Source: an uncultured Gammaproteobacteria bacterium (GTDB taxonomy: Bacteria > Patescibacteriota > Patescibacteriia > 2-12-FULL-57-11). From it: a DNA stretch of 64,000 bases. Shown one piece after another: positions 6,702 to 43,961 of this stretch. The stretch spans positions 2,740-66,739 of the forward strand of contig CAZYLV010000004.1 in NCBI GenBank assembly GCA_964648865.1, in the 5' to 3' direction. The position numbers were made by a program, and so were the translations under genes. Positions within the stretch are counted from its first letter, which is position 1; each line of letters opens with the position of its first letter. Below the pieces are notes generated by a model, which was given only the letters and a program-made list of their open reading frames with translations, made no database searches and was not told where the DNA came from.

Positions 6702-8609
6702 CTACGGGACGACCGTGACCGTGGCCGTGCCGGTGAAGGTCACGCCGTCGGTGAAACGCGCGGAGACGGTGACGGCGCCGCCGGAGGTGACTTGGGACGC
6801 GGTGAAGACGTTGGCCGCCAACGAACCCACCGGATCGCCGGTCATGCTCCAGACGGCGTCCGCGGTGACATCCCGCGCGCTGCCGTCGCTGTAGTGGGCC
6901 GTGGCCGTGAAGGCCTGGCCCATGCCGCCTTTGACCGTGGCCATGGCGGGCGCGACGCTGACGCGTTGCAGCGTCACCTGGACCTGCTGCGGCGGGAGGA
7001 CACGCACGGCAAAGGAACCGGCGAGACCGGCATAGGCGGCCTGCACCGTGGCGTCCCCGGCGGCCGAGGTCACGAGATCGCCGCGGGTGAGCGTGCCCAC
7101 CGGATCGCCGGCGAGCGCCCAGGCGGCCTCGACGGTGACGTCGCGCGTGGAGCCGTCTTCGTACGTGAGGATGGCGCGGAACTGCTGCGAGTCCGGCGTG
7201 TTCATGATGGTCCGGGTGCCGGTGACCGCCAGCGACGTGGGCGTGGATGCCGCGGGTTGGTTGGTGTTGGCGTTCGTCGGCGGTTGGTTGGTGTTCGTGG
7301 CCGTCGGCACGCTGACCTCGGCGTCCTGGTCCGCGGGCGGCTCCTCCGGCGTGGTGGTGGCCGTCGGCACCTCGTCACGCGTCGGACTCGGGAGGGGCAA
7401 GGCGGCGCGCGTGGGCATCTCCTGCCAGCCCATGGCGTCGGGGAACGCCGCGGCCATGGCCGTCATCAGCGCCTCGACGTCGGACCGCTCGCCCATCACC
7501 CGATCGCGCACCGCCTCCGGCACGGGGACGTCGGCGCCGTCGATCGCCGCGATGAGCAGGCGATGCTCCATGACGCGGCCGACCATGCGACGGACGCGAC
7601 GGCGCGCCGTCTCCGGGGACAGCTGCTGGAGCTCACGTTGCATCGCGCGCAGCCCGTCGACATAGGCCGCGAGCGTACGCTGCGCGCGGTCGCCCTTGCC
7701 GGCGCGCGCCAGGAGCACGGCCTCGGCGAAACGCCGCCCCTCGTAGGAGAGGCGCAGCTCCTGGCGGGCCTCCGGGTCGGTGGTCAACGCCAGCCGCAGG
7801 CGCTCGCCGAAACGGCGCAGCGGGTAGCGGACGTCGCCGGGCAGGACGTCGCCGAGCGCGGAGAGCCGCTGCTCGCGCCGGCGGCGGACGATCTCCAGGA
7901 ACCGCTCGTCCGCGGACATGTTCTTGCGGTACCAGGCGGAGCTGCGGAAGCGCTCGGCCATGGCGCGGCGCTGCATGGCGCCGGCCGCGCGGCCGTCCTT
8001 CTTGGGCATCCAGGCCTCCTCGCCGGAGCGCATCTCCTCCCATGAGGCCGCGGCCGAGAGCGGTGCGCCGCCCTCCGGCGCCTTGGCCACGCCGACCAGC
8101 CCGTCGACGACCTGCACGAAGTCGCCCGCCGGATCCGAGACGTCGGTCACGAAGGCCGTGCCGCGCACCGTGGCCACGACCGTCGAGGACTGCACGCTGA
8201 AGGCGGCATCCTGGTCGAGCAGCTTGGCGATGCGCGCCCAGACGCGGCCGGCGGTGACCCCGAGCGAGACGCGGGTCAGCGCGTGGTTCTCGGCATCGAC
8301 GGCCAGCTCCTGGACGACGACCTCGGCGCGCTCGTCGAGCCGCGCCGTGGCGCCGTCGTAGAAGTTGAGCGTGGCCTGGCTCTTGGCGTTGGTCTTGATC
8401 TGGTCGCCGACCGCGACCTCGGCGTCGGCCGCGACCGGCTGCCAGGATCCCCCGCCGCGACGCAGGAAGGCCTCCCCTTCGTCCACGGTGACCGTCGCCA
8501 CCGGCGCGGCGCGGTCCTCGGGAGCCGAGAGGGCCCAGGCATTGAGCCCGCCCACCACGGCCAAGATGAGCACGAGCAGCAGCGCCGCGAGGAAGGTCCG
8601 TTTCTTCAT
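6702..8609 (-). CDS. FecR-domain protein with a signal peptide, a central helical region and C-terminal Ig-like (Big_2-type) repeats
   Basis: 635 aa. N-terminal signal/TM, a FecR-like beta region (ATVTVDEGEAFL...VAVGDQIKT...ATLNFYDGATARLDE), a Pro/Thr linker and two repeated T-G-D-P-V-G-[ST]-L modules. Its stop lies 1 nt from the cyclase start. Confidence 0.75.
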   Translation of the reverse strand: MKKRTFLAALLLVLILAVVGGLNAWALSAPEDRAAPVATVTVDEGEAFLRRGGGSWQPVAADAEVAVGDQIKTNAKSQATLNFYDGATARLDERAEVVVQELAVDAENHALTRVSLGVTAGRVWARIAKLLDQDAAFSVQSSTVVATVRGTAFVTDVSDPAGDFVQVVDGLVGVAKAPEGGAPLSAAASWEEMRSGEEAWMPKKDGRAAGAMQRRAMAERFRSSAWYRKNMSADERFLEIVRRRREQRLSALGDVLPGDVRYPLRRFGERLRLALTTDPEARQELRLSYEGRRFAEAVLLARAGKGDRAQRTLAAYVDGLRAMQRELQQLSPETARRRVRRMVGRVMEHRLLIAAIDGADVPVPEAVRDRVMGERSDVEALMTAMAAAFPDAMGWQEMPTRAALPLPSPTRDEVPTATTTPEEPPADQDAEVSVPTATNTNQPPTNANTNQPAASTPTSLAVTGTRTIMNTPDSQQFRAILTYEDGSTRDVTVEAAWALAGDPVGTLTRGDLVTSAAGDATVQAAYAGLAGSFAVRVLPPQQVQVTLQRVSVAPAMATVKGGMGQAFTATAHYSDGSARDVTADAVWSMTGDPVGSLAANVFTASQVTSGGAVTVSARFTDGVTFTGTATVTVVP

Positions 8610-8685: not shown

Positions 8686-10074
8686 TCAGCGGCTGCGCCG
8701 CTCCTCGGACCACTCGATCCCGAAGATGGCCTTCGGGAAGAGCAGCTCGGCGAGCGGCGGCACGTGCCGCTTCTTGTAGTGGCGGTGGTTGATCGGGGAG
8801 CGCTCCAGCACGCTGCGCAGGTAGTTGCGCAAGGTGTCGTACTGCCCCTCGATGTCCCAGCCGTACAGCTTGTGGTTGACTCCGACGACGTCGTAGTCCT
8901 CCGCGCTGTAGGCGTTGGCCATCCGCCGCCGTCGTCCTCCGAGCAGCGGGAAGACGGCCGTGGCCGCGCGGATGCCCGCGGCGCGTTCGGTGGCGTCGCG
9001 GAAGGTCAGGCGGAAGCGCACCAGGTCCGGCAGTTCGGTCGGATCGAGACGGTTCTTGAGCAGCAGCTTCCAGAGGATGGAGCCGAGCTGCTTCTGTCCG
9101 GGATCGAAGGCCACCGGCAGCACCGCGCCGTCCAGCGTCCGGAAGAGCCGGTAGCCGAAGGGCACCTCGCGCAGGCGCTCGCCGTCGCGCGGACGTTCGC
9201 CCGCGTCGAGCAGCCGCAGCGGCCGACACTCCTTCTCGGAGACGCCCACGTGCAGCACGCAGCCCACCACCGTGTCGCGCACGAAGAACATCTCTTCGAG
9301 CCGCAAGGTCAGCAGGTGCGTGATGAGCGCCAGCGGATCCTCCACCGCCAGCCGGCGCAGCTCCTCCTCCCGCATCGTCGGCAGCAGCCCGGCGGCCACA
9401 TCGCGCTTGCTGCGCGCGGCGACGATCCAGGAGAGCACGTGCTCCCCGAGTTGGCGGATGCGCATCTCGATCTCGAAGATCCGCAACGCCAGCACCAGGT
9501 CGCGCCGCAGGGTGAAGGCCACGATGCGCGGGAGCAGGTCGCCCTGTCCGCCGCCGTTGCGCATCACCGGCATCCGACCGAGCTCCACGAGCACCGCGGC
9601 GGGGTCCGCCTCGGCCTCGAGCTTGCCCACCGAGGAGAGCAGGAAACTGCTGGCCTCGGGGATGTGCGCGTCGCGGAAGCGACGGACCTCCTCGCGCGCC
9701 TTGCGGAAGCAGGCGCGCAACTGGACGTAGACCTCCTCGTCGCTGAACCGTCCGTCGATGCCGTAGCTGTCGCGGGCGATCCGCGCGAGGACCGCCGCGC
9801 GTTCGCCGGGGTCGGCCGCGCGCATCCGGTCGGCGAGCATGCGCACGCGCAGCACCTCGTGCTGGAAGTGCTGCGAGAGCCCCAGGCCGCGGCCGCGGCG
9901 GTCCTGGCGCAACGCGCCCATCCCCCGCCGGCTCACCGGCAGGATGGGGGTCAGCAGCACGTCTTCCGGCTCGTCGTCCGCAGGGAGCGCCGGCCGCGTG
10001 CGCGGCGCGACCAGCGGACCGGGTTGATCGAACCGCGGATGGACGGGATCGGCTCGGGTTTCCTCGGTTTCCAA
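8686..10074 (-). CDS. hypothetical protein
   Basis: ORF runs to 10095 (GTG). TTG at 10074 is preferred because it is preceded by AAGGAGG. No recognised domain; codon usage is coding-like. Confidence 0.5.
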   Translation of the reverse strand: METEETRADPVHPRFDQPGPLVAPRTRPALPADDEPEDVLLTPILPVSRRGMGALRQDRRGRGLGLSQHFQHEVLRVRMLADRMRAADPGERAAVLARIARDSYGIDGRFSDEEVYVQLRACFRKAREEVRRFRDAHIPEASSFLLSSVGKLEAEADPAAVLVELGRMPVMRNGGGQGDLLPRIVAFTLRRDLVLALRIFEIEMRIRQLGEHVLSWIVAARSKRDVAAGLLPTMREEELRRLAVEDPLALITHLLTLRLEEMFFVRDTVVGCVLHVGVSEKECRPLRLLDAGERPRDGERLREVPFGYRLFRTLDGAVLPVAFDPGQKQLGSILWKLLLKNRLDPTELPDLVRFRLTFRDATERAAGIRAATAVFPLLGGRRRRMANAYSAEDYDVVGVNHKLYGWDIEGQYDTLRNYLRSVLERSPINHRHYKKRHVPPLAELLFPKAIFGIEWSEERRSR

Positions 10075-32424: not shown

Positions 32425-33693
32425 TCACTTCTTCATGCCCGTCCAGGCGCGGACGGCGGCGAGCAGGTCTGCGCGCGGGAGGAGATCGGCCTTCTCGGCA
32501 CCCCGTTCTTTCCACTCCACGGCATCCTTGGCGAGCGTCTTCTCGGAGACCACGAGCCGGAGCGGGATGCCGATGAGGTCGGCGTCGGCGAACTTCTCGC
32601 CCGGCGCGGCGTCCTCGCGGTCGTCCCAGAGCACCTCGAGACCTGCCGCCTCCACGTCGGCGACGAGCGTCTCCGCGGATGCGGCGACCTCTTCCGGCTT
32701 CTTGCCGCCGATGGACACCAGGTGCACGTCGAACGGCGCCACGCTGCGCGGCCAGACGATGCCCTTGTCGTCGTGATGCACCTCGACGATCGTCCCCATG
32801 ACGCGCGACGGCCCGATGCCGTAGCAGCCCATCAGCACCTCGCGTTTCTTGCCGTCGGCGTCGTCGACCGTGAAGCCGAACGCGTCCGTGAACCGGGACT
32901 TCAACGGGAAGATGTTGCCGACTTCGATGGCCTTGTCGACCTTGATCGTCCCTTCTTTGCAGCTGGGGCAGGCGTCGCCCTCTTTCACCTCGGCGATCTC
33001 CTTGTTCTGGGCGAAGCCGCACTTCCCGCAATGGAAGATGAGGTCCTCACCCGAGTCCGTGAGGACCTGAAACTCGTGGCTGTACTTGGAGAAGACGCCG
33101 CCTGATGCCTCGACGACGAGCGCCTCCAGCCCGCAGCGCCGGTAGACGGCGAGGTAGGCGTCCTTGGCCCGCTCGTAGAACCGCTCGAAGTCCTCTTGCG
33201 TGAGGTGGAAGCTGTAGAGGTCCTTCATCGAGAACTCGCGACCGCGGAGCAGGCCCGACTTGGCCCGCGGCTCGTTGCGGAACTTGTCCTGGATCTGGTA
33301 GACGGCCACCGGCAGGTCCTTGTACGAGCGCACGAACTGCTGCACCAGCGGCGTGACGATCTCCTCGTGCGTCGAGCCGAGCGCGTATTCCTTGCCTCCG
33401 TGGCCCTCGAGCTTGAAGAGCACGTCGATCTCGTCCCAACGGCCGGTCGTAGTCCACGGCTCCTTGGGGGTCAGCGCGGGCATCAGCACCTCCTGCGCCC
33501 CGAGCGCGTCCATTTCCTCGCGGACGATGCGCTTGACCTTATCGAGCACGCGCAAGCCGAGCGGCAGATAGGTGAAGATGCCGGCGGCGAGCTGGTTGAC
33601 GAAGCCGCCCTGCACCAAGAGGCGCGCGTTGGCGGAGTCGGCGTCGTGGGGGGCGGTCTTCCGGGTCTTGGCGAACAGCTGGGAGTAGCGCAT
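32425..33693 (-). CDS. proS: proline--tRNA ligase (short form without the bacterial editing insertion)
   Basis: 422 aa with class II aaRS motifs and a C-terminal anticodon-binding domain. Confidence 0.9.
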   Translation of the reverse strand: MRYSQLFAKTRKTAPHDADSANARLLVQGGFVNQLAAGIFTYLPLGLRVLDKVKRIVREEMDALGAQEVLMPALTPKEPWTTTGRWDEIDVLFKLEGHGGKEYALGSTHEEIVTPLVQQFVRSYKDLPVAVYQIQDKFRNEPRAKSGLLRGREFSMKDLYSFHLTQEDFERFYERAKDAYLAVYRRCGLEALVVEASGGVFSKYSHEFQVLTDSGEDLIFHCGKCGFAQNKEIAEVKEGDACPSCKEGTIKVDKAIEVGNIFPLKSRFTDAFGFTVDDADGKKREVLMGCYGIGPSRVMGTIVEVHHDDKGIVWPRSVAPFDVHLVSIGGKKPEEVAASAETLVADVEAAGLEVLWDDREDAAPGEKFADADLIGIPLRLVVSEKTLAKDAVEWKERGAEKADLLPRADLLAAVRAWTGMKK

Positions 33694-33750
33694 ATCGCGG
33701 GAAATCTACCACGCGTCCCGGAAAAGAAAAAGACGCGCCGGGGGGCGACG

Positions 33751-34464
33751 TCAGTCGAGCGTGATGACGAGCTCCTGCGCGGGACGCGGGAAGATCTCGT
33801 CGCCGCAGTCGCGCAGCATCAGGCAACGCTCGGTCACCTGCCGGAGCGGCCGGTCCGCGACCCGGACGGTCCAATAGGGATGCAGCTCGACCGGGCCGAC
33901 CAGCCGCGGGGAAGCCTCCCAGCTGCGCCATTCGAGGACGTACTCCTGGACCTCCTCCACGCAGACCTCCATCGGCACGATGCGGATCGGACGCGGCACG
34001 CCCGCGTCCGGACGGTCCGGGACGACGGGTCGCCGTGCGAGCGCCTCCAGGCCGTGGAGGGCGGCGTGCAGGCCGCCGGCGATGGCCAACGCGCCCGCCA
34101 GGGAGAGCGCCACGATGCCGACGGCGATGGCCAGACCTCGCACGAGCTGGAGCGCCGTGGCCGCAGCGGAAGCGACCCTCTCGCAGACCTCCATGGCGAT
34201 CCGCTCGGCCATGGCCCAGACCCCGAGCCGTGTCGCGCAGCGCAGCAGGTCGTTCTCGTAGGCGAGCGACGCGGCGTAGGTCCGCAGCGGCGTCTCGCTC
34301 TCACGGTAGGACTCCCGCGGCTCCGGCGCGGGTCCGCGCTCTCCGGTGAGCGCCGCGTGCCAGCGTGCGGCCGTGACGCTCCATGCGGAGAGCAATCGCA
34401 GATGGGCGATGGCGAGGCCGTGGACGTAGCCCGCCAACGCCTCGCGGAACCGGTTTTCTCGCAC
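33751..34464 (-). CDS. hypothetical membrane protein
   Basis: ORF extends to 34515 (TTG). GTG 34464 is preferred because it is preceded by AGGAGG. Several TM helices in the C-terminal half. Confidence 0.5.
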   Translation of the reverse strand: MRENRFREALAGYVHGLAIAHLRLLSAWSVTAARWHAALTGERGPAPEPRESYRESETPLRTYAASLAYENDLLRCATRLGVWAMAERIAMEVCERVASAAATALQLVRGLAIAVGIVALSLAGALAIAGGLHAALHGLEALARRPVVPDRPDAGVPRPIRIVPMEVCVEEVQEYVLEWRSWEASPRLVGPVELHPYWTVRVADRPLRQVTERCLMLRDCGDEIFPRPAQELVITLD

Positions 34465-34516
34465 GTTCACCTCCTGCCCTGCATCTTCCGAGGAAACCGC
34501 CCCGGCTGTCAACAAA

Positions 34517-34551
34517 AAAAGAGGGTCCTCAGGGACCCCCGGTCGCCGCGC
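34517..34551 (-). terminator. intrinsic terminator of the 34553 gene
   Basis: Minus strand: gggtcc-ctga-ggaccc followed by UCUUUUUUUG. Confidence 0.55.
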
Positions 34552-34552
34552 C

Positions 34553-35089
34553 TCAGATGACGTCGGGCGACGTCGGTACCGTCATCGGCGGGAACGCCGT
34601 CACGGCATCGTCGCAGTCGCGCTCGATGATTCCGAGCGCAGCGTCGAACCCGTCGTAGCACTCCGCGAGCGTGTCATGGCAGTCCCGCAACGCGTCCTGC
34701 TGACCGTCCAGCAGGCCCGCGCTGTCGTCGGCGACCTCCGCGTTCCGCTCGATGCAGGCCGCGACCAGCCGCTCGCTCTCCGCGACGAGCTGCCGCTCCC
34801 GCCGCTCGTCCGTGACGCCGCGGCGCAGCAGGATGAGCCGCCGTGCCGCCTCCAGACAGGGCTGGTCCGTGACCGCGAGGATGTCGCGGATCTCGCTCCG
34901 CAACATCCGGCGCGCGTCGTCCGGCGTCATGCCGGGGAAGCCGACCGGCTCCTCCGGCAGGACCACCAGCACCGAAGCCGACACGGTGCCGGACGACTCC
35001 TGCGGGGCATCGAGCCGTCCGCAGACGAACCCCGCTCCGCATGCGATGCCGACGACCGCGGCGAACCCCCACACTTGTCTCTCTCGCAT
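34553..35089 (-). CDS. hypothetical lipoprotein
   Basis: 178 aa with a signal peptide and lipobox (VVGIACGAG). Translationally coupled to the upstream small ORF. Confidence 0.5.
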   Translation of the reverse strand: MRERQVWGFAAVVGIACGAGFVCGRLDAPQESSGTVSASVLVVLPEEPVGFPGMTPDDARRMLRSEIRDILAVTDQPCLEAARRLILLRRGVTDERRERQLVAESERLVAACIERNAEVADDSAGLLDGQQDALRDCHDTLAECYDGFDAALGIIERDCDDAVTAFPPMTVPTSPDVI

Positions 35090-35101
35090 CTCTCCTCCTC
35101 C

Positions 35102-35239
35102 CTACGGCTCGGCGACGCTCGGCTCGTACGGGGTGCGGTTCTCGTCGCCGCACCGCTGCACGAGGCTGATCGCGCCGATCAAGAGCAGCATGATGACCAC
35201 AAGGGGCCAGTTCAGGTCCGAACCCTTGTCTCTCTTCAT
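35102..35239 (-). CDS. small single-TM protein (45 aa)
   Basis: ATG 35239 preceded by AAGGAGGTGAG. The ORF track extends to GTG 35302. Sequence MKRDKGSDLNWPLVVIMLLLIGAISLV... Confidence 0.35.
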   Translation of the reverse strand: MKRDKGSDLNWPLVVIMLLLIGAISLVQRCGDENRTPYEPSVAEP

Positions 35240-35357
35240 CTCACCTCCTTGGACCGGACGGATGGGCGAGGCGACGCGGGGAGAGTGTGCGCCGCTGCTC
35301 ACGCATCCATCGCGTCCAAGGAAGCCGCTCCTCCGGGAGCACCAGCGGGTGGTGCGC

Positions 35358-35392
35358 CCGGAGAAGAACCGGATACCGCTCCGGTGGGCGTT
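35358..35392 (-). repeat. family-A structured intergenic repeat, copy A4 (terminator-like hairpin)
   Basis: Minus sense cgcccacc-ccgga-gcggta-tccgg-ttcttctcc, directly after the stop of the 35393 gene. Confidence 0.55.
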
Positions 35393-35824
35393 TCACTCCA
35401 TGGCGAGGGACGTCGTGTCCCGACAGATGCGGGACTCCGCCTGCTCGTCGACGCGCCCGTCGCAGTCGTTGTCGACCGCGTCGGAGACCTCGCAGTAGTC
35501 CGGGTGGACGCGCGGATCGCCGTCGTCGCAGTCGCGGCCGCCGCAGGCCACCGAGGCCTCGCCGTCGTTGTCGTCGTCCGCCAACCGGTGGATGCACGTC
35601 CGGCCGCCGCCGATGCACACCTCCCACTCGCAGTCCGAGAGATGGGTGACGGTCGTACCGGGACCGTACTCGCGCACCGCGGCGGCCTCGATGGCCGCGC
35701 GGCGCTCGGCGCGGATGCGCGCGTACTCCGCGGCGCGGCGCGTGACGTACTGGTCGAGCGCGGCACAGCCGCTGCAGGCGACGATGATGGCTGACGCCTG
35801 GAGCAGCACGATGAAGCTCTTCAC
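35393..35824 (-). CDS. lipoprotein with MopE-like putative metal-binding Cys/Asp repeats
   Basis: GTG 35824 preceded by GGAGGG; the ORF runs to 35851. Lipobox IIVACSGC. Repeats of the C-x-D-x-D-x-D-G type (DNDCDGRVDE, CGGRDCDDGD). Confidence 0.6.
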   Translation of the reverse strand: MKSFIVLLQASAIIVACSGCAALDQYVTRRAAEYARIRAERRAAIEAAAVREYGPGTTVTHLSDCEWEVCIGGGRTCIHRLADDDNDGEASVACGGRDCDDGDPRVHPDYCEVSDAVDNDCDGRVDEQAESRICRDTTSLAME

Positions 35825-35911
35825 GTTGGACCCTCCTTCCCAGGCCGCCACCGCACCGCGGTGATGGGCTGGGGAAAGGGCCGGAATGTCGCTTCCGGTG
35901 GGCGATGCGAC
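35825..35911 (-). repeat. family-A structured intergenic repeat, copy A1, carrying an X-type 3' segment shared with B1
   Basis: Hairpin ccggaa-tgtcgc-ttccgg (plus strand 35881-35898), then ccctttcccc, a 10-bp palindrome caccgcggtg and the SD. Confidence 0.6.
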
Positions 35912-36709
35912 TCAGGGCCGCGCGTCGAGGTCGTCAAGCAGCGTGACGCGCGAGAGCGCGATGCGGTCGTAATCGGAGACCGACGCGACCGGCGACCCCA
36001 GCGTGTAGTTGACGAAGAAGGCGTCCTCGACGATCCGCGACCGGAAGCGCGCGCTCGGCGCGAACACCGCGTCGGCGACGGCCGGAGCGATGGGCCGCAG
36101 CACGCCGCCGACATCGACGACGTAGAGCCGGTCCGGGGCGCTTTCCAGGCCGAGGACATAGGTCCCGGGGCGGACCGTGACGTTGCTGCCGGCGAGCGGG
36201 ATGCCGCTGAGCACTTCGCCGGAGACCACCATGACGTGATTGCAGATGTGGCTGCGGACGCCATCCTCGAGCCAGTGGTGCACCGGGCCTGCGGCCGTAT
36301 CTTCGCCGAACCAGGACATCAACTCGATCTCCGAAGGGAAGACATGCCGCCGACCGTCACGTCCGATGACGTAGACCTGATAGCTGCCCTCCCAACGCAC
36401 AAGCGCGCCGGGTGCAAGGTCGCGACCGTCGGACCGCAGGCAGGTGCGGCAGTGGCATCCGCCGCCGATACCCGGGGAGGCCTGCAAGAAGCCGCACACA
36501 GGCGGGCGACCGGGTTCCGGCTCCTCACACCCCGGCGCGGGCGGTCCGGCATCGCTGCCGGCATCCCTTCCCGCGTCCGTCCCGCTGTCGACGGGAAGCG
36601 CCGCGTCCGGCACGCCGACGTCGACCAGATGCGGCTCCGGGCAGGCCGGAGCCGTCCGTGCACCGCAGCCGCTCGTGCTGAACGCGAGCGCGAGAATCAG
36701 GGAACGCAT
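35912..36709 (-). CDS. hypothetical lipoprotein (265 aa) with an Asp/Gly/Pro-rich N-terminal region
   Basis: ATG 36709 preceded by GGAGGAGG. Lipobox LAFSTSGC. Confidence 0.55.
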   Translation of the reverse strand: MRSLILALAFSTSGCGARTAPACPEPHLVDVGVPDAALPVDSGTDAGRDAGSDAGPPAPGCEEPEPGRPPVCGFLQASPGIGGGCHCRTCLRSDGRDLAPGALVRWEGSYQVYVIGRDGRRHVFPSEIELMSWFGEDTAAGPVHHWLEDGVRSHICNHVMVVSGEVLSGIPLAGSNVTVRPGTYVLGLESAPDRLYVVDVGGVLRPIAPAVADAVFAPSARFRSRIVEDAFFVNYTLGSPVASVSDYDRIALSRVTLLDDLDARP

Positions 36710-36790
36710 CGTTTCCTCCTCCCAGACCGTCTCACGTGAGGCGGTCTCGGAAAAGGGCCGGAATGTCGCTTCCGGTGGGCGCCGTGGCCG
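36710..36790 (-). repeat. family-A structured intergenic repeat, copy A2
   Basis: Hairpin ccggaa-tgtcgc-ttccgg (36758-36775) plus a 24-bp palindrome agaccgtctcacgtgaggcggtct (36724-36747) abutting the SD. Confidence 0.6.
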
Positions 36791-37048
36791 TCAGTGCACG
36801 CGGGGGCACGTCCAGGCATCGAGGATCTCCGGACACGGTCGCTCGGACTGCGGGACCGTCCGACGGTCCCATGGGTCGAGCAGGTCGCAATGGAGCTCGA
36901 CCGGCTCGTCCGGCGAGGAGCGCTCCCCCTCCCAGGCGGGCGAGGTGAACAGATGCGGCTCAAGCCACGCCTCGGATGGCCGTGCGGGCCGCGACGGCAC
37001 GCCGCACGCCGCGAGCAGCACCACGGAAAGGAACATGAAACGCTGCAC
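36791..37048 (-). CDS. small lipoprotein (about 86 aa)
   Basis: ORF track runs to 37075, but that ATG lies inside the palindrome. GTG 37048 has GGAGGAG at 6-8 nt and gives M-QRFMFLSVVLLAACG (lipobox). Confidence 0.4.
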   Translation of the reverse strand: MQRFMFLSVVLLAACGVPSRPARPSEAWLEPHLFTSPAWEGERSSPDEPVELHCDLLDPWDRRTVPQSERPCPEILDAWTCPRVH

Positions 37049-37125
37049 GTCTCTCCTCCTCCCAGACCATCTCATGTGAGCTGGTCTCGGAAAAGGGCCC
37101 GATGTCGCTCGGGTGGGCGCTGCCG
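37049..37125 (-). repeat. family-A structured intergenic repeat, copy A3
   Basis: Hairpin cccga-tgtcgc-tcggg (37098-37113) has the stem changed on both sides with the loop conserved. Palindrome agaccatctcatgtgagctggtct (37064-37087) shows a G-C to A-T covariation relative to A2. Confidence 0.6.
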
Positions 37126-37725
37126 TCAGCGGCAGAACAGATCCTCGTCGGTCATACCATCGCAGTCGTTGTCCATGCCGTCGCAGACTTCGACAGACGG
37201 ACCGACTTCACGGATACAGGCGCTCCATCGCCCTGCGGAGCAGGTCTGGACGCCGCGCGCGCACTCGCCGAGGTCCGTGCCGCACAGCTGTGTATCCCCC
37301 TCCATGCAGCTGCAGCCCTCGTCGACCACGCCGTCGCAGTCGTTGTCGAGGCCGTCACAGGTCTCGGCGCCATCCGGGACGCACCCCACGATCTCGATGG
37401 TCGCGAGCGTGGTGACATGCGGACGCGGCGTATCGAGATGCGTTTCGTACGCGGTCACCTCGCCATCCTCCCAACAGACCACCGCCAGGGCGACGGCCGA
37501 GGCGACGATGTTGAACGTCAGGATCGCCAGGGCGTAGTTCCGCCAGCGCCCCGAGGGGTCCGTGGCCCGCACCGCCGCCTTCTCCTCACGGAGGACCTCG
37601 TTGAGCCGCCGCTCCGCCTCGAGCTGGGCCGCCCAGGCATTGCGGTAGTCGTCGTGCGGCTGGGGCGAGAGACGCCGAAGCGTCCAGACCACGGACCGCA
37701 GCAGGAGCATGCGCATCGTGCGCAT
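37126..37725 (-). CDS. membrane protein with C-terminal MopE-like Cys/Asp repeats
   Basis: ATG 37725 preceded by GGAGGGAAG; the ORF runs to 37851. TM helix YALAILTFNIVASAVALAVVCW. Repeats CDGLDNDCDGVVDEG and CDGMDNDCDGMTDED. Confidence 0.55.
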   Translation of the reverse strand: MRTMRMLLLRSVVWTLRRLSPQPHDDYRNAWAAQLEAERRLNEVLREEKAAVRATDPSGRWRNYALAILTFNIVASAVALAVVCWEDGEVTAYETHLDTPRPHVTTLATIEIVGCVPDGAETCDGLDNDCDGVVDEGCSCMEGDTQLCGTDLGECARGVQTCSAGRWSACIREVGPSVEVCDGMDNDCDGMTDEDLFCR

Positions 37726-37860
37726 CTTCCCTCCACTTCTTGTGAGACGAGAGAGGCATCCTCTCCCCCAAACCGCCACCGGAGTGACGGGCTGGGAAAA
37801 GGACGGGAGGGCGTCGAGCCGGGCTCGATGTCCCTCCCTACGGACCGCCACACGTGCGCC
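37726..37860 (-). repeat. family-B structured intergenic repeat, copy B1
   Basis: Long bipartite hairpin gggaggg-cgtcgagc-cgg-gctcgatg-tccctccc (37805-37838). It shares gggctggg-aaaagg and the downstream X segment with A1. Confidence 0.55.
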
Positions 37861-39318
37861 TTACGGCCCGGCGGGCATGTCGTGGTTGTACCAGTAGAGC
37901 CAGCCGGAGGTCTCGTCGATCTCCGCCGGGTCGATCGTCGCCGGATCGGTCGGCACGACGACGTATCCGCTCGTCCAGCCCAAGTCGACCTCGCACGAGC
38001 CGCTGTAGTCGCGACGGAACACGCTGTACGACGAGCACAGCAGTCCGCCCCAGGCGAAGCGCACGGACGGGTCCGTGCCGATGTCCCGGATCGTCCACTG
38101 GCGGTCGGCGACGCCGTAGCGGCGCACGCCCGTCGCGAGGTCCACCCAGCTGACCATCGTCCCGGGACGGGCACCGACCTGCTCGACCGTCGCCGTGAGG
38201 CGCGCGGCCGCGTAGGTCTCGTCCGGGACGACCACCGCGTTGGCGCAGATGGTGTACGGATGCCATCGCGGGTCCGGCGGGAACCGGAACCAGTCGATGA
38301 ACTCGCGCATGGAGCGGAACTCGAAGATCCTCTGGGGGATTTCGAGATCCGTCCCGTAGCGGAGCGTCGGGTCGCTGACCGTGCGGAAGAGCCCGCTCGG
38401 CCGCGCATCCGGGCTGGCCGCGTACCAGGGCTCCGGCCCGCGCACCACACCCTCGCAGCGCGGGGTGCCGCCACCCGGGTCCTCGGCCAGACGCAGCAGG
38501 CCGTGCTCCGGTACGTCGATGTACCGGCCGACCTGCGGACAACCGATGAAGTTCGTGCCGCTCTCGGCGTCCGCGACGCTTCCGATGGGAAGCGCCCACT
38601 GCAGCGCGCGGCTGCGGTAGACCTCGGGATCGGCGAACGTGATGTAGATGACCACGTCCTCCGTGTACCAGGTGCTGCCGTCGGTCGGCGGTGCGACAGG
38701 GACGGCGATGCCGTCCGTGGCGAGCGCCTCGGCGGTCACGTCCTGGACGAGGACCGGCGGAAGCCGGACGTCGTCCACATGCACGCGAATCCGGAAGAGA
38801 TCGTCCGGGTCGCCGGCCCGCAGCTCGGGCCGGATGCGCAGGGTACGGACGTCCGTGGGGCCGAACAGCTCGACCCACAGGAAGTAACCGTCCTCGTTCC
38901 ACGGCTCACGCTCGCCCGTGCACCGCGTGTAGGGCATGGCCGCGTACGTGCCACCCTCCGGGACGACGCTCTCGCAGGACAGCGGCTGCTCGCAGAACGA
39001 GAGCAGGTCCTGGTAGTCCCGCGGATCACGGGGCGCCTCGACCTCACGCGTGTGGTGGCAGTCGCCGCCTTCGCAGGCGTCGACCGTCTCCGCGTCGCCG
39101 TCGTCGCAGTCGGCCACGCTCGTGCACAGGCCGGCCTCGACGGTCCGTTCGTGGTTGCAGAAGCCGGAGTCGGCCTCGCACCAGTCGAGCGTCTGGTCAT
39201 CGCGGTCGTCGCATTCGGCGTCCGCCTCGCAGCCGACCATCTCGTGGATGATCTCGATCCGCTCCGTGGAACAGGCCGAAATCAGCGCGGCGCTCACCGC
39301 ACACAGAAGCATCCGCAT
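37861..39318 (-). CDS. lipoprotein (485 aa) with N-terminal Cys/Asp-rich repeats and a large C-terminal domain of unknown function
   Basis: Start at the in-frame M44 (ATG preceded by AAGGAGGA); the ORF track extends to 39447. Lipobox LISAC. Repeats CEADAECDDRDD, CDDGDAETVDAC. Confidence 0.6.
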   Translation of the reverse strand: MRMLLCAVSAALISACSTERIEIIHEMVGCEADAECDDRDDQTLDWCEADSGFCNHERTVEAGLCTSVADCDDGDAETVDACEGGDCHHTREVEAPRDPRDYQDLLSFCEQPLSCESVVPEGGTYAAMPYTRCTGEREPWNEDGYFLWVELFGPTDVRTLRIRPELRAGDPDDLFRIRVHVDDVRLPPVLVQDVTAEALATDGIAVPVAPPTDGSTWYTEDVVIYITFADPEVYRSRALQWALPIGSVADAESGTNFIGCPQVGRYIDVPEHGLLRLAEDPGGGTPRCEGVVRGPEPWYAASPDARPSGLFRTVSDPTLRYGTDLEIPQRIFEFRSMREFIDWFRFPPDPRWHPYTICANAVVVPDETYAAARLTATVEQVGARPGTMVSWVDLATGVRRYGVADRQWTIRDIGTDPSVRFAWGGLLCSSYSVFRRDYSGSCEVDLGWTSGYVVVPTDPATIDPAEIDETSGWLYWYNHDMPAGP

Positions 39319-39450
39319 CGCTTTCCTCCTTGTTGTACAGAACTGCCGATGACTTGAGGGCGTTTCCCACCGTGGGAAGCGCTCTCGAGAAATCGGGGGA
39401 GGTCGCCGTCGAGCCGGGCTCGACGGACGCCTCCCCGAGAGGCGCACGGA
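39319..39450 (-). repeat. family-B structured intergenic repeat, copy B2
   Basis: ggggagg-tcgcc-gtcgagc-cgg-gctcgac-ggacg-cctcccc plus a second hairpin gcgtttccc-accgt-gggaagcgc and a shared cgatgacttgagg segment. About 85% identical to B3. Confidence 0.55.
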
Positions 39451-40053
39451 CTACGGGCCATCCGCGTCGAGGAGGTTGTCCACCTCGCGCAGCAGGTCCT
39501 CCGGCGCCATCGTCCCGTCGAGATCGATGACGCCCGGCAGGAAGCGCGTGGGCAGCACGTGCACGCGGTGCTGACGGTCGCTCGTCGGCGCGTAGGCCCG
39601 CACCTCCGCCTCGGTCTTCCGTCGTCCCTCGCGGATGTCTCGAGGGATGCGACGCGCGAGCCGCTCCTCGTCCGTGAGGTGGATGTAGAACTTCCGCGCG
39701 GAGAGCGGAGCCTCCACGTGCAGCGCCAGCGCCCCCTCGAGGACGACCATCGGGGCCGGGGCGATGACCTCGATGCCGCTCGGCTCCGACGTGCGCATGT
39801 CGTAGACCGGCACCTCGGCGGACGCGCCGGCCGCGAGCGTCCGGAGAGCCACGGCGCAGCACTCGAGGTCGATGGCCCGCGGGTCGATCCACTCGTAGGG
39901 CTCACCGCGCGCCTCCGCCGCCTGCTTGTGGCGCAGTCCGCGGTACCAGCGGTCCAAGGTGACGACCGTCGCACCGAACCGCTTGGCCATGAGGGCCGCG
40001 AGCGTCGTCTTGCCGCAGCCGGCGCCGCCGGCCAGGATGACGATGTCTGTCAC
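39451..40053 (-). CDS. uridine kinase / phosphoribulokinase-family P-loop kinase
   Basis: GTG 40053 preceded by AGGAAGGAGAG; the ORF track extends to 40461 through an Arg-rich artefact. ILAGGAGCGKTTLA Walker A motif; about 200 aa. Confidence 0.7.
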   Translation of the reverse strand: MTDIVILAGGAGCGKTTLAALMAKRFGATVVTLDRWYRGLRHKQAAEARGEPYEWIDPRAIDLECCAVALRTLAAGASAEVPVYDMRTSEPSGIEVIAPAPMVVLEGALALHVEAPLSARKFYIHLTDEERLARRIPRDIREGRRKTEAEVRAYAPTSDRQHRVHVLPTRFLPGVIDLDGTMAPEDLLREVDNLLDADGP

Positions 40054-40175
40054 TGTGCTCTCCTTCCTGGGAATACGTCGATGACTTGAGGACGTTTCCC
40101 TTGTGGGGAACCGCACTCGAGAAATCGGGGGAGGACGCCGGTCGAGCTGGGCTCGACAGACGCCTCCCCGCCTCC
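40054..40175 (-). repeat. family-B structured intergenic repeat, copy B3
   Basis: ggggagg...gtcgagc-tgg-gctcgac...cctcccc (40128-40169) plus the hairpin cgtttccc-ttgtg-gggaaccg. Confidence 0.55.
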
Positions 40176-40382
40176 TCACTTGCCCTTGATGGCCTTGCCC
40201 AGCGCTGCGATGGCGCGACCGAGCAGGATGAAGGGCCAGCCGAAGATCCACCGCACGATGCGCATGTAGAAGCGCATCACCGCGGTGCTCCAGGCGTCTC
40301 CGCCCAGGATGTTGGCCACCCCGGCGGACATGACCACGGTCAAGAGCAGGATACCGAGCACCGGTCCGACCAGCTGTTCCAT
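40176..40382 (-). CDS. small two-TM membrane protein (68 aa)
   Basis: ATG 40382 preceded by GGGAGG. Sequence MEQLVGPVLGILLLTVVMSAGV...WIFGWPFILLGRAIAALG. Confidence 0.4.
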   Translation of the reverse strand: MEQLVGPVLGILLLTVVMSAGVANILGGDAWSTAVMRFYMRIVRWIFGWPFILLGRAIAALGKAIKGK

Positions 40383-40593
40383 CACGTCCTCCCGTCGCCC
40401 TCCGGAAGAGAGCGGCGGCAGGAAGCGACAACGCGGCCGGCCGGTCACCTGTGCGGGCCATGGGAAAGCACGGGTGACGCGGCGCGACCGCGCGGTTCGG
40501 GCCAGACTGGGCCTGCAGCTCTCCCCAGAGACGCGGTTCCCAAAGAACGGCCCAAGATAACGGAAAAGCCGGGTCGTGTCAACCCGGCTTCCC

Positions 40594-42402
<1,809 letters not shown>

Positions 42403-42480: not shown

Positions 42481-42981
42481 TTAGCGGGGGTAGACCTCGA
42501 GGGTCACGTACTTGATGCCCCAGCGCTTGGCCTCCTCGCGCGTCTCCATCCAGATGTCGGCGCGATACCGGTACCGGGCGTTCATGCGGTCCTCGACGAT
42601 GAAGATCTTGTCGCCGTAGATCTCGGGGATCTTCACGCGAGTGCCGATGGGCAGGAAGTTGGCCGCCAGCACGCCGTCGCGGACATGGGTGCCCGACGCG
42701 GTGATGAACGGCGTGTCATCGGTCTGGTCCGGGGTGGACGAGTAGGCCGTGACCGGCACGTTCTTGTAGACCTTCTTCCCGGGCGCGTCGGCCGCGGGGG
42801 CGAAGGTGTCCTGGTCCGGCTGCGCCTGAGGAAGCTCGGCGGCGAAGGCCGTCTTCACCAGGATGTCCCCGGCGGCCGTCGCCTCGGCCTTGGCGGCCGT
42901 CGCGGAGACGTCCGTCATGAGCCCGGCCAGCACGAGACAAGCCACGAGCTGCAGGCTGATTTTGCGGGAAGTCTGGATCAT
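42481..42981 (-). CDS. 3D-domain (MltA-like) secreted protein
   Basis: ATG 42981 chosen (signal-peptide-like MIQTSRKISLQLVACLVLAGL). C-terminal 3D domain ...GTRVKIPEIYGDKIFIVEDRMNARYRYRADIWMETREEAKRWG. Confidence 0.65.
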   Translation of the reverse strand: MIQTSRKISLQLVACLVLAGLMTDVSATAAKAEATAAGDILVKTAFAAELPQAQPDQDTFAPAADAPGKKVYKNVPVTAYSSTPDQTDDTPFITASGTHVRDGVLAANFLPIGTRVKIPEIYGDKIFIVEDRMNARYRYRADIWMETREEAKRWGIKYVTLEVYPR

Positions 42982-43228
42982 AGGGTCGGTTGCCGCTTCT
43001 GGCAGCAAACGCGAGACCCTATCACAAACCGCGGGTTTTGTCAACCCTGCGACCCCGCCGGGGAGATCGAATTCCTGGTAGCCGAAGACGATGCGGGCCA
43101 TAGAAAAACGGGGCCTGCTGCCCCGCGAAATCAAGCCGTTTCGCGACTCGTGGACACCTGGAATCTGCGGGCAAGAGCATACCCCGCCCCGGCGGACCTG
43201 TCGAGCCTGGTATCCACAGGCGAATTCG

Positions 43229-43780
43229 CTAAGGACGTTCTTGGTCGGTTTCCCATTCGCGTGGATTGTTTGCGATGTATGCGCGGATGGCATGGAGGTG
43301 GCGTTCGGACCGGATGATGCGTTCGTGGTAATTGCGTTGCCATATCGGTAAACCAAACGTGTCGCCGATCCTACTGATTCTGTGGGTCGTTATGGCCTTG
43401 AACGTACGTACCAATTCGCCCAGGTCCGGGGCGTCATAAATGTCGCCCCTACGACCGATGAAACGCCGTTGTCCGTAGGGGCGTGATTCATCACGCCCAG
43501 GTCCAGCCGGATCGGGAATCCACATGACGACACCATGGACATGATTGGGCATGACAACCCATGAATCGGGGATGGTCGGAAACCGATCCGACAGACGGCG
43601 CCACGTTTCATCCACGATCCGCCCGGCATCATTCAATCGCATTTCCCCGTCAACGACGTCGCCAAACAGGCATTCCCGGTGTTTGACCACGACCGTCACG
43701 AAATACGCGCCGGGAGAAGCGTAATCGAAACCGGGCAGGCGGATGGAGCGTCGCCGGTGGGTGTCCGGGTTGAAGGGCAT
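43229..43780 (-). mobile_element. REP-associated tyrosine transposase (RAYT; IS200/IS605 TnpA-like HUH Y1 transposase), apparently intact
   Basis: 183 aa with AYFVTVVV, the HUH motif MPNHVHGVV and the C-terminal WQRNYHERIIRSERHLHAIRAYIANNP (catalytic-Tyr region). Confidence 0.75.
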
Positions 43781-43885: not shown

Positions 43886-43961
43886 GCAGCGGTCGCTCAG
43901 CTGGTCGAGCCGGGGCCTCTTAAGCCCAGGGCCCTGGGTGCGATCCCCAGCCGCGGCACCA
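43886..43961 (+). tRNA. tRNA-Lys(CTT)-like gene with atypical features; possibly a pseudogene or tRNA-like element
   Basis: 76 nt with the cloverleaf foldable by hand. Acceptor stem gcagcgg/ccgcggc has one A-G mismatch. D-arm gctc/gagc with GG. Anticodon loop ctCTTaa. T-arm ctggg-tgcgatc-cccag has G55 instead of U. CCA is encoded, and a plus-strand terminator follows. Confidence 0.4.

Follow-up and report, generated by a model that had tools for sequence, protein, structure and literature searches.

The 64-kb stretch of contig CAZYLV010000004.1 analysed here (hereafter the window; G+C 68%) carries an array of ten open reading frames (ORFs), filling positions 33751-40382, between the prolyl-tRNA synthetase gene proS (32425-33693) and typA (40594-42402). 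All ten lie on the minus strand, and they are named g1, on the proS side, to g10, on the typA side. This gene content, first put forward in a preliminary description made from the sequence alone, is borne out by the ORF calls, by the composition of the called frames (G+C of 0.85-0.94 at third codon positions, GC3, against 0.38-0.55 at second positions), and by the presence of identical proteins in the NCBI/Logan collection for all nine of the products looked up (237, 178, 143, 265, 85, 199, 485, 200 and 68 amino acids, aa). The tenth, the 45-aa g3, was not among the looked-up proteins, and is 82% identical to its counterparts in the related loci L044 and L045; the other loci referred to below bear the labels L003-L005, L008, L009, L017, L041 and L043-L046. 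Recognisable domains are few. Above-threshold Pfam matches among the ten proteins are limited to PF11617 in g4 and g7 and PF00485 in g9, NCBIfam has no significant match for any of them apart from the kinase g9, and neither database assigns any to a metal-transporter or chaperone family. As had been described, no recognisable surface enzyme is encoded, the kinase being the sole protein with an enzyme domain.

The predicted products support the view that the array is overwhelmingly extracytoplasmic, with five putative lipoproteins and four membrane proteins. Lipoproteins were recognised by a rule of the PROSITE PS51257 type, comprising an N-terminal K/R, a hydrophobic stretch and the pattern [LIVMFWSTAG]2-[LIVMFYSTAGCQ]-[AGS]-C with the Cys at position 15-35. 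The pattern is found in g8 (C16), g6 (C15), g5 (C15), g4 (C17) and g2 (C17), each with K/R within the first seven residues, and these are the same five lipoboxes as were listed in the preliminary description; small transmembrane proteins were listed there too, and hydrophobic segments mark g10, g3, g7 and g1 as membrane proteins. The 68-aa g10 (40176-40382; GC3 0.90), which is devoid of Cys and matches a collection protein exactly, has its hydrophobic residues at 8-26, and a segment 48% identical to it is found within a 76-aa gene behind typA in L043. The single-pass g3 (35102-35239; GC3 0.94) has its membrane segment at residues 9-27. Two of the predicted lipoproteins are without a family match: the 85-aa g6 (36791-37048), with four Cys and the lipobox LLAAC, whose homologue in L044 and L045 is 56% identical, and the 178-aa g2 (34553-35089), with seven Cys and an N-terminal anchor (the lipobox-like GIAC), which is evolving fast, being 46% identical in L044 against 82-85% for its neighbours. 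The 237-aa membrane protein g1 (33751-34464; GC3 0.88) has two central hydrophobic segments, no signal peptide and its own TTGACA-containing upstream region; it is represented by an identical protein in the collection, is 84% identical in L044, and belongs to no significant family. Weak matches of g4 to YcgN, of g1 to NNH7 and TAL, and of g3 to the T7 o-spanin were dismissed as noise.

The conserved anchor gene of the array is g8 (37861-39318), encoding a 485-aa predicted lipoprotein with the lipobox ISAC, the Cys of which is invariant across the family alignment. Behind the lipobox come two Cys/Asp repeats resembling the CTDC type (approximately residues 29-90), then a middle part rich in beta structure, and then a divergent version (approximately 304-414) of the domain found at the C-terminus of g5. 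No Pfam or NCBIfam model matches g8 above threshold, PF11617 being absent even at E<=10, and against Dicty_CTDC (PF00526) it scores 10.7 bits as a whole protein and 14.2 bits as isolated repeats, below the threshold of 27; as a relative found by tblastn in a Myxococcota-type metagenome-assembled genome (MAG), L017, the sole one checked, is a clear CTDC-repeat protein at 65.9 bits, g8 is at most a divergent relative of this family. The family itself is tiny, comprising 10 clusters among 5.8 billion clustered proteins at identities of 40-63%, and those of its members that bear a name are from MAGs labelled 'Candidatus Uhrbacteria bacterium' or 'Patescibacteria group bacterium', in keeping with the earlier suggestion that the cluster is lineage-specific. 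The source is therefore taken to be an uncultivated, high-GC bacterium of groundwater type, resembling Uhrbacteria, within the Candidate Phyla Radiation (CPR). An identical g8 is present in the DNA runs SRR34646260 and SRR14787580. When the full g8 alignment was used to scan a genome collection, the Cys/Asp repeat dominated the search, and the loci recovered were mostly from Myxococcota, with none from Uhrbacteria; a metagenome scan with the C-terminal half returned three loci, two of them already known. In L009 (1587-4801), two g8 paralogues of 483 and 527 aa lie in tandem, the second with three Cys/Asp repeats rather than two.

The 265-aa predicted lipoprotein g5 (35912-36709; lipobox STSGC) consists of a disordered linker, rich in Asp, Gly, Ala and Cys, followed by a C-terminal domain of approximately 135-160 aa. 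AlphaFold2 (AF2) models residues ~100-265 at a predicted local distance difference test score (pLDDT) of 84-96, as two beta-beta-beta-alpha halves. No Pfam model covers this g5-type domain, and a profile search of the PDB retrieved only spurious antibody 'AVYYC' matches and no sequence relative. The domain is abundant: out of 1.84 billion cluster representatives its profile matches 5,028, and 2,156 of these matches have E<=1e-30. Among the 150 best, 145 have the domain either right behind the signal-peptide region or at the extreme C-terminus, and its partners include S8 subtilases, C25 and trypsin-like proteases, an M23 peptidase, GH18, Big/Ig-like and fn3 domains, along with ice-binding-like and beta-helix regions. 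Ten matches were looked up, among which four clusters were named; the two with an organism came from Uhrbacteria and Veblenbacteria, and the named clusters were annotated as hypothetical proteins, save for one M23 family metallopeptidase. The link to g8 was made with hhalign, which aligns residues 304-414 of the g8 family with residues 96-209 of g5 (probability 74%, E 2.8e-5), and in L003, L008 and L009 a trypsin-like protease adjoining the g8 homologue also bears a g5-type domain. The terminal position, the surface-enzyme and Ig/fn3 partners and the Patescibacteria origin of the named members together suggest that this may be a terminal module for targeting to, or binding of, the surface or wall; were that confirmed, thousands of hypothetical proteins could be better annotated.

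A second kind of module is shared by g4 and g7. The 143-aa predicted lipoprotein g4 (35393-35824) has one complete MopE-type motif and a DDDNDG loop, and scores 38.3 bits against PF11617 (E 1.6e-9; cut-off 27), a model of a ~30-aa Cys/Asp motif; its orthologues are 53%, 66% and 85% identical in L005, L041 and L044, respectively. The 199-aa g7 (37126-37725) has one hydrophobic segment (residues 66-84) followed by a Cys-rich, presumably extracellular region that includes two MopE-type motifs (DNDCDG twice; PF11617 42.4 bits, E 8.4e-11); the protein has 13 Cys in all. Three proteins with MopE-like metal-binding repeats had been claimed; g4 and g7 hold up as carriers of the motif, while g8 drops out. 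The label of metal binding itself overreaches. Only residues 6-49 of the 336-residue chain of MopE* (2vov) align with g4, at E 0.011, the g7 ectodomain has no PDB relative at E<=10, and PF11617 has been described as too unspecific to identify homologues of MopE or CorA (PMC6189053), with similar motifs being present in teneurins and algal proteins (PMC3278476). Furthermore, the short Cys/Asp motif is distinct from the copper site described for MopE* and CorA, which is made up of two His and a kynurenine (PMC3423442, PMC3912023). For these reasons a role in copper binding is unsupported. As the motif core DNDCDG is an acidic loop of the DxDxDG type, structural Ca2+ and disulfides appear the more probable chemistry. 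The label 'copper-binding MopE', which g4 and g7 would receive from automated annotation, is without support at this locus.

The array recurs in related genomes in altered form. Wherever the contig reaches, g8 homologues are found downstream of typA, directly or a few genes off (L003/L004, L005, L008, L009 and L043), and a core of g8, g5-type and g4-type genes recurs in L005 and L041, with L043 and L044 showing the part that their contigs cover. A comparison of synteny, as proposed in the preliminary description, thus finds the order typA, g8 homologue, g5-like gene, g4-like gene across L005, L041, L043 and L044. The proS gene closes the array in L005 and L044, the latter encoding a prolyl-tRNA synthetase (ProRS) 93% identical to that of the window. 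Around this core the gene content is variable. L005 is without g10, g9, g7, g3, g2 and g1, has a different 270-aa lipoprotein, carries two genes absent from the window's array, and has its g6-like gene after g5. In L046 (1-1185), an A element (one of the two types of structured spacer described below) is followed by a g9 homologue (77% identical), a B element and a g7 homologue, with no g8 between, and in L043 A elements are found on both sides of a 70-aa gene. Sequence divergence is similarly marked, with identities of 40-63% for g8, 46% for g2 and 56% for g6, against 81-93% for TypA and ProRS. An extra 144-aa gene, the product of which has neither a signal peptide nor a membrane segment, is located between the g6 and g5 homologues of L044 (501-935, plus strand) and L045 (861-1295, plus strand); it is absent from the window, is flanked by B elements on both sides and is, like g9, non-secreted.

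The genes of the array are separated by two families of hairpin-forming repeat, elements A and B. It had been stated that one of these lies between every pair of genes; they are real repeats at seven of the nine internal junctions, and are missing from the 12-nt gap between g3 and g2 and from that between g2 and g1, where there is instead an intrinsic terminator followed by a promoter-like TTGACA. All seven spacers fold better than shuffled controls (z of approximately -3 to -6.7). Directly behind the typA stop codon, a hairpin with a sigma-70-like promoter (40554-40593, minus strand like all features of the array) has its -35 TTGACA within the hairpin and, after a 17-nt spacer, its -10 TATCTT overlapping the 3' end; the composite GCCGGGTTGACA...CCCGGCTTTTC is kept behind typA in L005 (~9790-9830) and L043 (~1600-1640), and is presumed to be the start of the operon. 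Element A, comprised of a nested GC-rich hairpin GGGGAGG[GTCGAGCCCAGCTCGAC]CCUCCCC, then CGAUUUCU, then a second hairpin, has one copy before g9 (40079-40170; repeat families D5/D6; fold z -3.96) that is 85-93% identical to a second copy in the 5' leader of g8 (39347-39437; z -3.90). Its hairpin motif is found solely within the array, and the two-hairpin architecture, with other stem sequences, precedes the g8 homologues of L005, L041 and L043; the copy ahead of g9 is a duplication of this g8 leader. The intrinsic terminator (34521-34540; GGGGGUCCCUGAGGACCCUC then U7) was identified by a terminator scan as the end of the transcription unit g10-g2, such that a single promoter and a single strong terminator delimit nine genes. 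Since the g2-g1 gap holds both this terminator and a TTGACA, g1 is probably its own transcription unit.

In element B a small hairpin comes first, followed by a CCCUUUUCC tract and then by a longer hairpin, in which the outer stem pairs the tract with GGGAGGAGG, a Shine-Dalgarno (SD) sequence. Copies precede g6 (37053-37113, ending 4 nt ahead of the start codon; z -4.67; covariance score 54.7 bits), g5 (36713-36781; repeat families D3/D9; z -4.09; 54.0 bits) and g4 (35831-35904; z -3.53; 52.6 bits). The g8-g7 spacer (37759-37842; z -2.95) is chimeric, combining an A-type hairpin (37813-37842) with a B element (37759-37804; 56.9 bits). In the g4-g3 spacer (35243-35385), a B-like element (35325-35369; 40.7 bits) is followed by a long stable hairpin with its 3' arm over the SD of g3; this is the stablest fold of the region (-92.9 kcal/mol, z -6.73), and the same arrangement is seen in L044. 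A possible six-codon mini-ORF, TTG GAC GCG ATG GAT GCG TGA, follows a GGAGGAG in this spacer (35243-35392), behind the B-like element and ahead of the long hairpin. At 37586-37771 (minus strand), the purine-rich arm of the B element in the g8-g7 spacer, GAGAGGATG, provides an SD-like sequence and the ATG of a 61-codon ORF in a frame other than that of g7; this ATG is unconserved in L005, and the ORF is therefore probably not a gene.

A covariance model of B, trained on eight copies from the window and L005, has five hits in the window, every one inside the array and on the gene strand, with none in the other ~57 kb. Copies that were not used in training occur in L041, L043, L044 and L046, each of them between genes and in the orientation of those genes, while lower-GC Uhrbacteria loci and four loci labelled Myxococcota/Deltaproteobacteria gave no match. 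Element B is conserved with compensatory changes in six related genomes: the share of cells that pair is 92.5% over 18 distinct copies, where shuffles give 84% (0 of 1000 get as high), and double changes are found at 8 of 16 pairs (20 of 1000 shuffles), figures that are somewhat overstated as the alignment was fitted to the model and so favours structure. The 3' arm stops 3-7 nt before the start codon in nine copies, and is therefore the SD in these cases. Rfam 15, including the fourU and ROSE families, has no match in 33600-40700 at E<=1, and at gathering thresholds reports tRNAs only across the whole window. The preliminary description had raised co-regulation through the shared elements; this is plausible, given that the elements are real, specific to the array and structurally conserved in relatives, and B represents a concrete candidate cis-regulatory RNA in a phylum from which few are known. 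In L003, L008 and L009, the g8 homologue is found behind its own clear promoter (TTGACAA-N17-TAnnnT), with no A or B elements, and in L003 and L009 a conserved leader of another kind, TTCGAGCTCTACGAA...GGTCTCTCTGAGGCC..., comes after the promoter.

The presence among these genes of a uridine-kinase-like P-loop protein, as originally reported, is corroborated by the match of the 200-aa g9 (39451-40053) to PF00485 (62.9 bits, cut-off 22; E 4.5e-17) and by its full-length alignment with the Thermus uridine kinase 3asy (E 4.7e-19; also 3w8r, E ~4e-19). Its P-loop and RRxxRD lid are both retained, as is the Asp of the (D/E)xxY nucleoside site, here in LDRWY, placing g9 in the uridine kinase/PRK family of cytoplasmic nucleoside kinases. 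It falls below the NCBIfam equivalog cut-offs (72.9 against 180 for NF004018 and 69.5 against 220 for TIGR00235), has one close relative at 78% identity with every other at 39% or less, and appears to bear a Ser at the position where characterised enzymes such as UCK2 and ttCK hold a specificity-determining His or Tyr; on these three grounds its substrate is uncertain. No link between the kinase and the surface proteins is seen: L005 and L043 have no copy of it between typA and g8, and its neighbour in L046 is g7, not g8. Overall, g9 reads as a divergent nucleoside-salvage kinase that is a passenger in the array and unconnected to the envelope. The PDB relatives of g9 also include 'Uridine kinase P10' (9y3v/9y4b/9y4w; E 9e-11).

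The explanation that we prefer, at a probability of roughly 0.55, is that the interval of this CPR bacterium holds a lineage-specific, fast-evolving operon for the cell envelope, the expression of which is tuned by hairpins and in which the kinase is a passenger. The promoter within the post-typA hairpin would drive the nine genes from g10 to g2, up to the strong terminator, with g1 forming its own unit. Eight of the nine products would be tethered to the outside of the cytoplasmic membrane, those of g8, g6, g5, g4 and g2 through a lipid anchor and those of g10, g7 and g3 through a helix, and their exposed parts would be assembled from reusable modules: the MopE-type DxDxDG motif (g4 and g7), CTDC-type repeats (g8) and the ~135-aa domain (g5 and g8). 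The disulfide-rich acidic repeats would most likely bind structural Ca2+ rather than copper, the ~135-aa domain would target or bind the cell wall or surface layer, and the proteins would be structural components or decorations of the cell surface, contributing to envelope organisation or to attachment to a host or substrate. The A and B elements, opening with a terminator-like hairpin and a U-rich tract, may act as leaky hairpins that set the relative expression of the genes, and pairing of the B tract CCUUUUCC with the purine-rich SD of the next gene could hold back translation of the read-through transcript until the hairpin opens. The nucleoside-salvage kinase g9 would remain cytoplasmic. 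The lineage-specific module for the cell surface, for metal or calcium binding or for attachment that had been postulated is retained as to its lineage specificity and extracytoplasmic character, with its MopE-type metal label weakened.

Several observations weigh against this explanation. Surface exposure and lipidation are rule-based predictions, and g8, g5, g6, g2, g1, g3 and g10 all lack a significant sequence or structure match that would assign a function. The hhalign link between g8 and g5 carries just the 74% probability given above. Structure prediction, which had been proposed for both larger lipoproteins, was confident for the C-terminal domain of g5 and poor for g8 (pLDDT 57, from 10 sequences); with Foldseek returning only non-significant matches to beta-sandwiches resembling carbohydrate-binding modules, no fold is assigned to g8. 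The best PDB fold matches of the g5-type domain, to the repeats of EccB1 and EccB5, are themselves non-significant; those to EccB1 are the only recurring ones (E 0.06, template modelling score, TM, 0.16), and wall binding by EccB1 is itself a proposal, no more than hinted at (PMC4769845). With respect to regulation, about half of the B copies have their purine-rich arm ~33 or ~86 nt upstream of the start codon, with further hairpins following, and in those copies it is therefore not a functional SD; the U-tracts are short for terminators and were not called by the terminator scan, and the fitting of the B alignment to its own model tempers the covariation.

A copper or other metal acquisition module of the MopE/CorA type, in which the Cys/Asp-repeat proteins would capture ions for uptake, is very improbable: it can draw on the above-threshold PF11617 scores of g4 and g7, the weak match of g4 to MopE* and the acidic, Cys-rich character of the proteins concerned, all of which are offset by the short extent of that match, the want of a PDB relative for g7, the distinct two-His and kynurenine site, the unspecific nature of PF11617 with its counterparts in teneurins and algae, the missing transporter or chaperone among the ten proteins, and the absence of PF11617 from g8. 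The MopE reading was rejected on the PDB comparisons of g4 and g7 and on the literature (PMC6189053). A cell-wall-associated complex, in which the g5-type domain would bind peptidoglycan or a secondary wall polymer and g8 and g5 would position or regulate wall enzymes, serving envelope growth or division rather than adhesion, is unlikely in so specific a form, although it is compatible with the preferred envelope operon, being a narrower version of it with a largely overlapping probability. Fusions of the domain to M23, trypsin-like and S8 proteases and to GH18, the domain-bearing trypsin-like protease next to g8 homologues in three genomes, the terminal position usual for wall-binding modules, and top PDB folds from EccB1, the repeats of which resemble the wall-binding PlyCB (PMC4769845), all point in its direction, as does a 3D-domain protein beyond typA in both the window and L005. 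Set against these are the non-significance of the EccB1 match, the lack of a catalytic wall enzyme in the window's array, and the Ig/fn3, ice-binding-like and beta-helix partners, which equally fit general surface display. The 3D-domain (MltA/RlpA-like) protein (42481-43356, minus strand), the L005 counterpart of which (7223-7864) is nearly identical in its C-terminal part, may be a wall-active neighbour of the array.

The turnover of genes could also be explained by a cassette-type variable array, in which the A and B spacers are sites for the integron-like recombination or insertion of single genes. Every junction that differs between relatives falls at an element, as exemplified by the non-secreted 144-aa gene between B copies in L044, the arrangement g9-B-g7 without g8 in L046, the loss of six of the window's genes, gain of two others and displaced g6-like gene in L005, and the duplication of A around g9 and, in L043, around the 70-aa gene; all of the genes are also co-oriented. 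This is nevertheless improbable, given that the elements are strand-specific and include a ribosome-binding site, as expected of expression signals, that typA and proS flank the array in every genome where they are seen, and that homologous recombination between repeated spacers accounts for loss and duplication without a dedicated system. Membership of an integron in particular was rejected: the array adjoins no integrase, and none of the 11 intergenic regions contains an attC core pair (RYYYAAC...GTTRRRY), whichever strand is read. It is no more probable that there is no functional unit at all, the interval merely tolerating unrelated lineage-specific genes with spacers that are duplicated terminators and ribosome-binding sites. 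Most of the proteins are without detectable relatives or function, content varies strongly between relatives, and a cytoplasmic kinase, with a 144-aa cytoplasmic protein in L044, sits amid secreted ones. By contrast, the g8, g5-type and g4-type genes recur jointly in the related genomes that span this part, nine of the ten products are predicted to be membrane- or lipid-anchored, far above any genome average, domains are common to several members under a single promoter and terminator, and the spacers show covariation in their inner stems instead of mere copying.

A more far-reaching proposal, which we regard as doubtful, is that in this Uhrbacteria clade the typA-proS interval is a dedicated, plastic surface-gene array, its A and B spacers an undescribed class of intercistronic RNA that gates translation and marks the points of gene swapping, and the g5-type domain a new surface-anchoring or host-binding module of Patescibacteria, occurring in thousands of proteins; such gating might depend on temperature or some other cue. 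Taken by itself, the array is ordinary and in line with expectation, genomes of this group being rich in unannotated surface proteins. What is noteworthy is the large, unmodelled family of terminal domains and the array-specific, covarying, SD-pairing spacer with its cassette-like gene turnover. A life attached to other cells is generally assumed for CPR bacteria and, to our knowledge, almost nothing is known of their surface proteins; a literature search for CPR surface lipoproteins found nothing relevant. The locus supplies a small syntenic set of anchored CPR proteins for testing.

The wider neighbourhood encodes, besides the 422-aa ProRS, TypA/BipA and the 3D-domain protein, HU and a YmdB-like phosphoesterase. 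Rfam reports a tRNA at 43886-43958 (plus strand; 45.4 bits) where ARAGORN reports none; the site may hold a tRNA of atypical form or a structure resembling one.

Each of the principal components of the array can be compared with a known system. The SLH, LysM, CWB and PlyCB/EccB-type modules of monoderm bacteria resemble the g5-type domain in standing at the extreme termini of secreted enzymes and of Ig/fn3 proteins, and its two beta-beta-beta-alpha halves have the EccB1 repeats as their best, non-significant, fold matches, whereas in sequence the domain is unlike any of them and has no Pfam model. With the MopE and CorA proteins of methanotrophs, g4 and g7 have in common the motif C-DG-x-DNDCDG-x-x-DE, scoring above the Pfam threshold, and a predicted association with the surface; the likeness stops at the motif, outside which homology to MopE* is undetectable, the organism is no methanotroph, and the motif itself is widespread, occurring in Myxococcota and in eukaryotic teneurin-like proteins among others, and is not diagnostic of copper binding. 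Likewise, the g8 repeats, of the form GC-x-x-D-x-x-CDD-x-D-x-x-T-x-D-x-C-E-x-x-x-G-x-C-x-H, are 40-50% identical to repeats that are mostly from Myxococcota, and both sets occur in secreted, disulfide-rich proteins. Unlike the CTDC proteins, g8 scores below the family threshold (14 bits against 27), has two repeats only, and continues behind them for ~400 residues that have no relatives beyond a small Uhrbacteria clade. The kinase g9 aligns end to end with the Thermus representative of Udk (PF00485, TIGR00235) and keeps the P-loop, the nucleoside-site Asp and the lid, while differing from it in falling far under the equivalog cut-offs and in having a single relative above 40% identity.

As a whole, the array is reminiscent of integron arrays and of clusters of attC sites lacking integron-integrases (CALINs), in that short, co-oriented genes with hairpin-forming repeats between them vary in content among relatives. 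It differs from these in having neither an adjacent integrase nor an attC R''/R' pair, in its fixed site between typA and proS, and in elements that contain a ribosome-binding site on the coding strand. The B element itself is closest to fourU and ROSE thermometers and to translational attenuator hairpins, as elements that sequester the SD: pairing of its U-rich tract (CCUUUUCC) with the purine-rich SD (GGGAGGAGG) makes up the basal part of a hairpin, and in roughly half of the copies this stem directly precedes the start codon. Unlike fourU and ROSE, and with no Rfam match at E<=1, B is intercistronic rather than being the 5' leader of a heat-shock or virulence gene, is located behind a terminator-like hairpin, and is repeated up to five times per operon.

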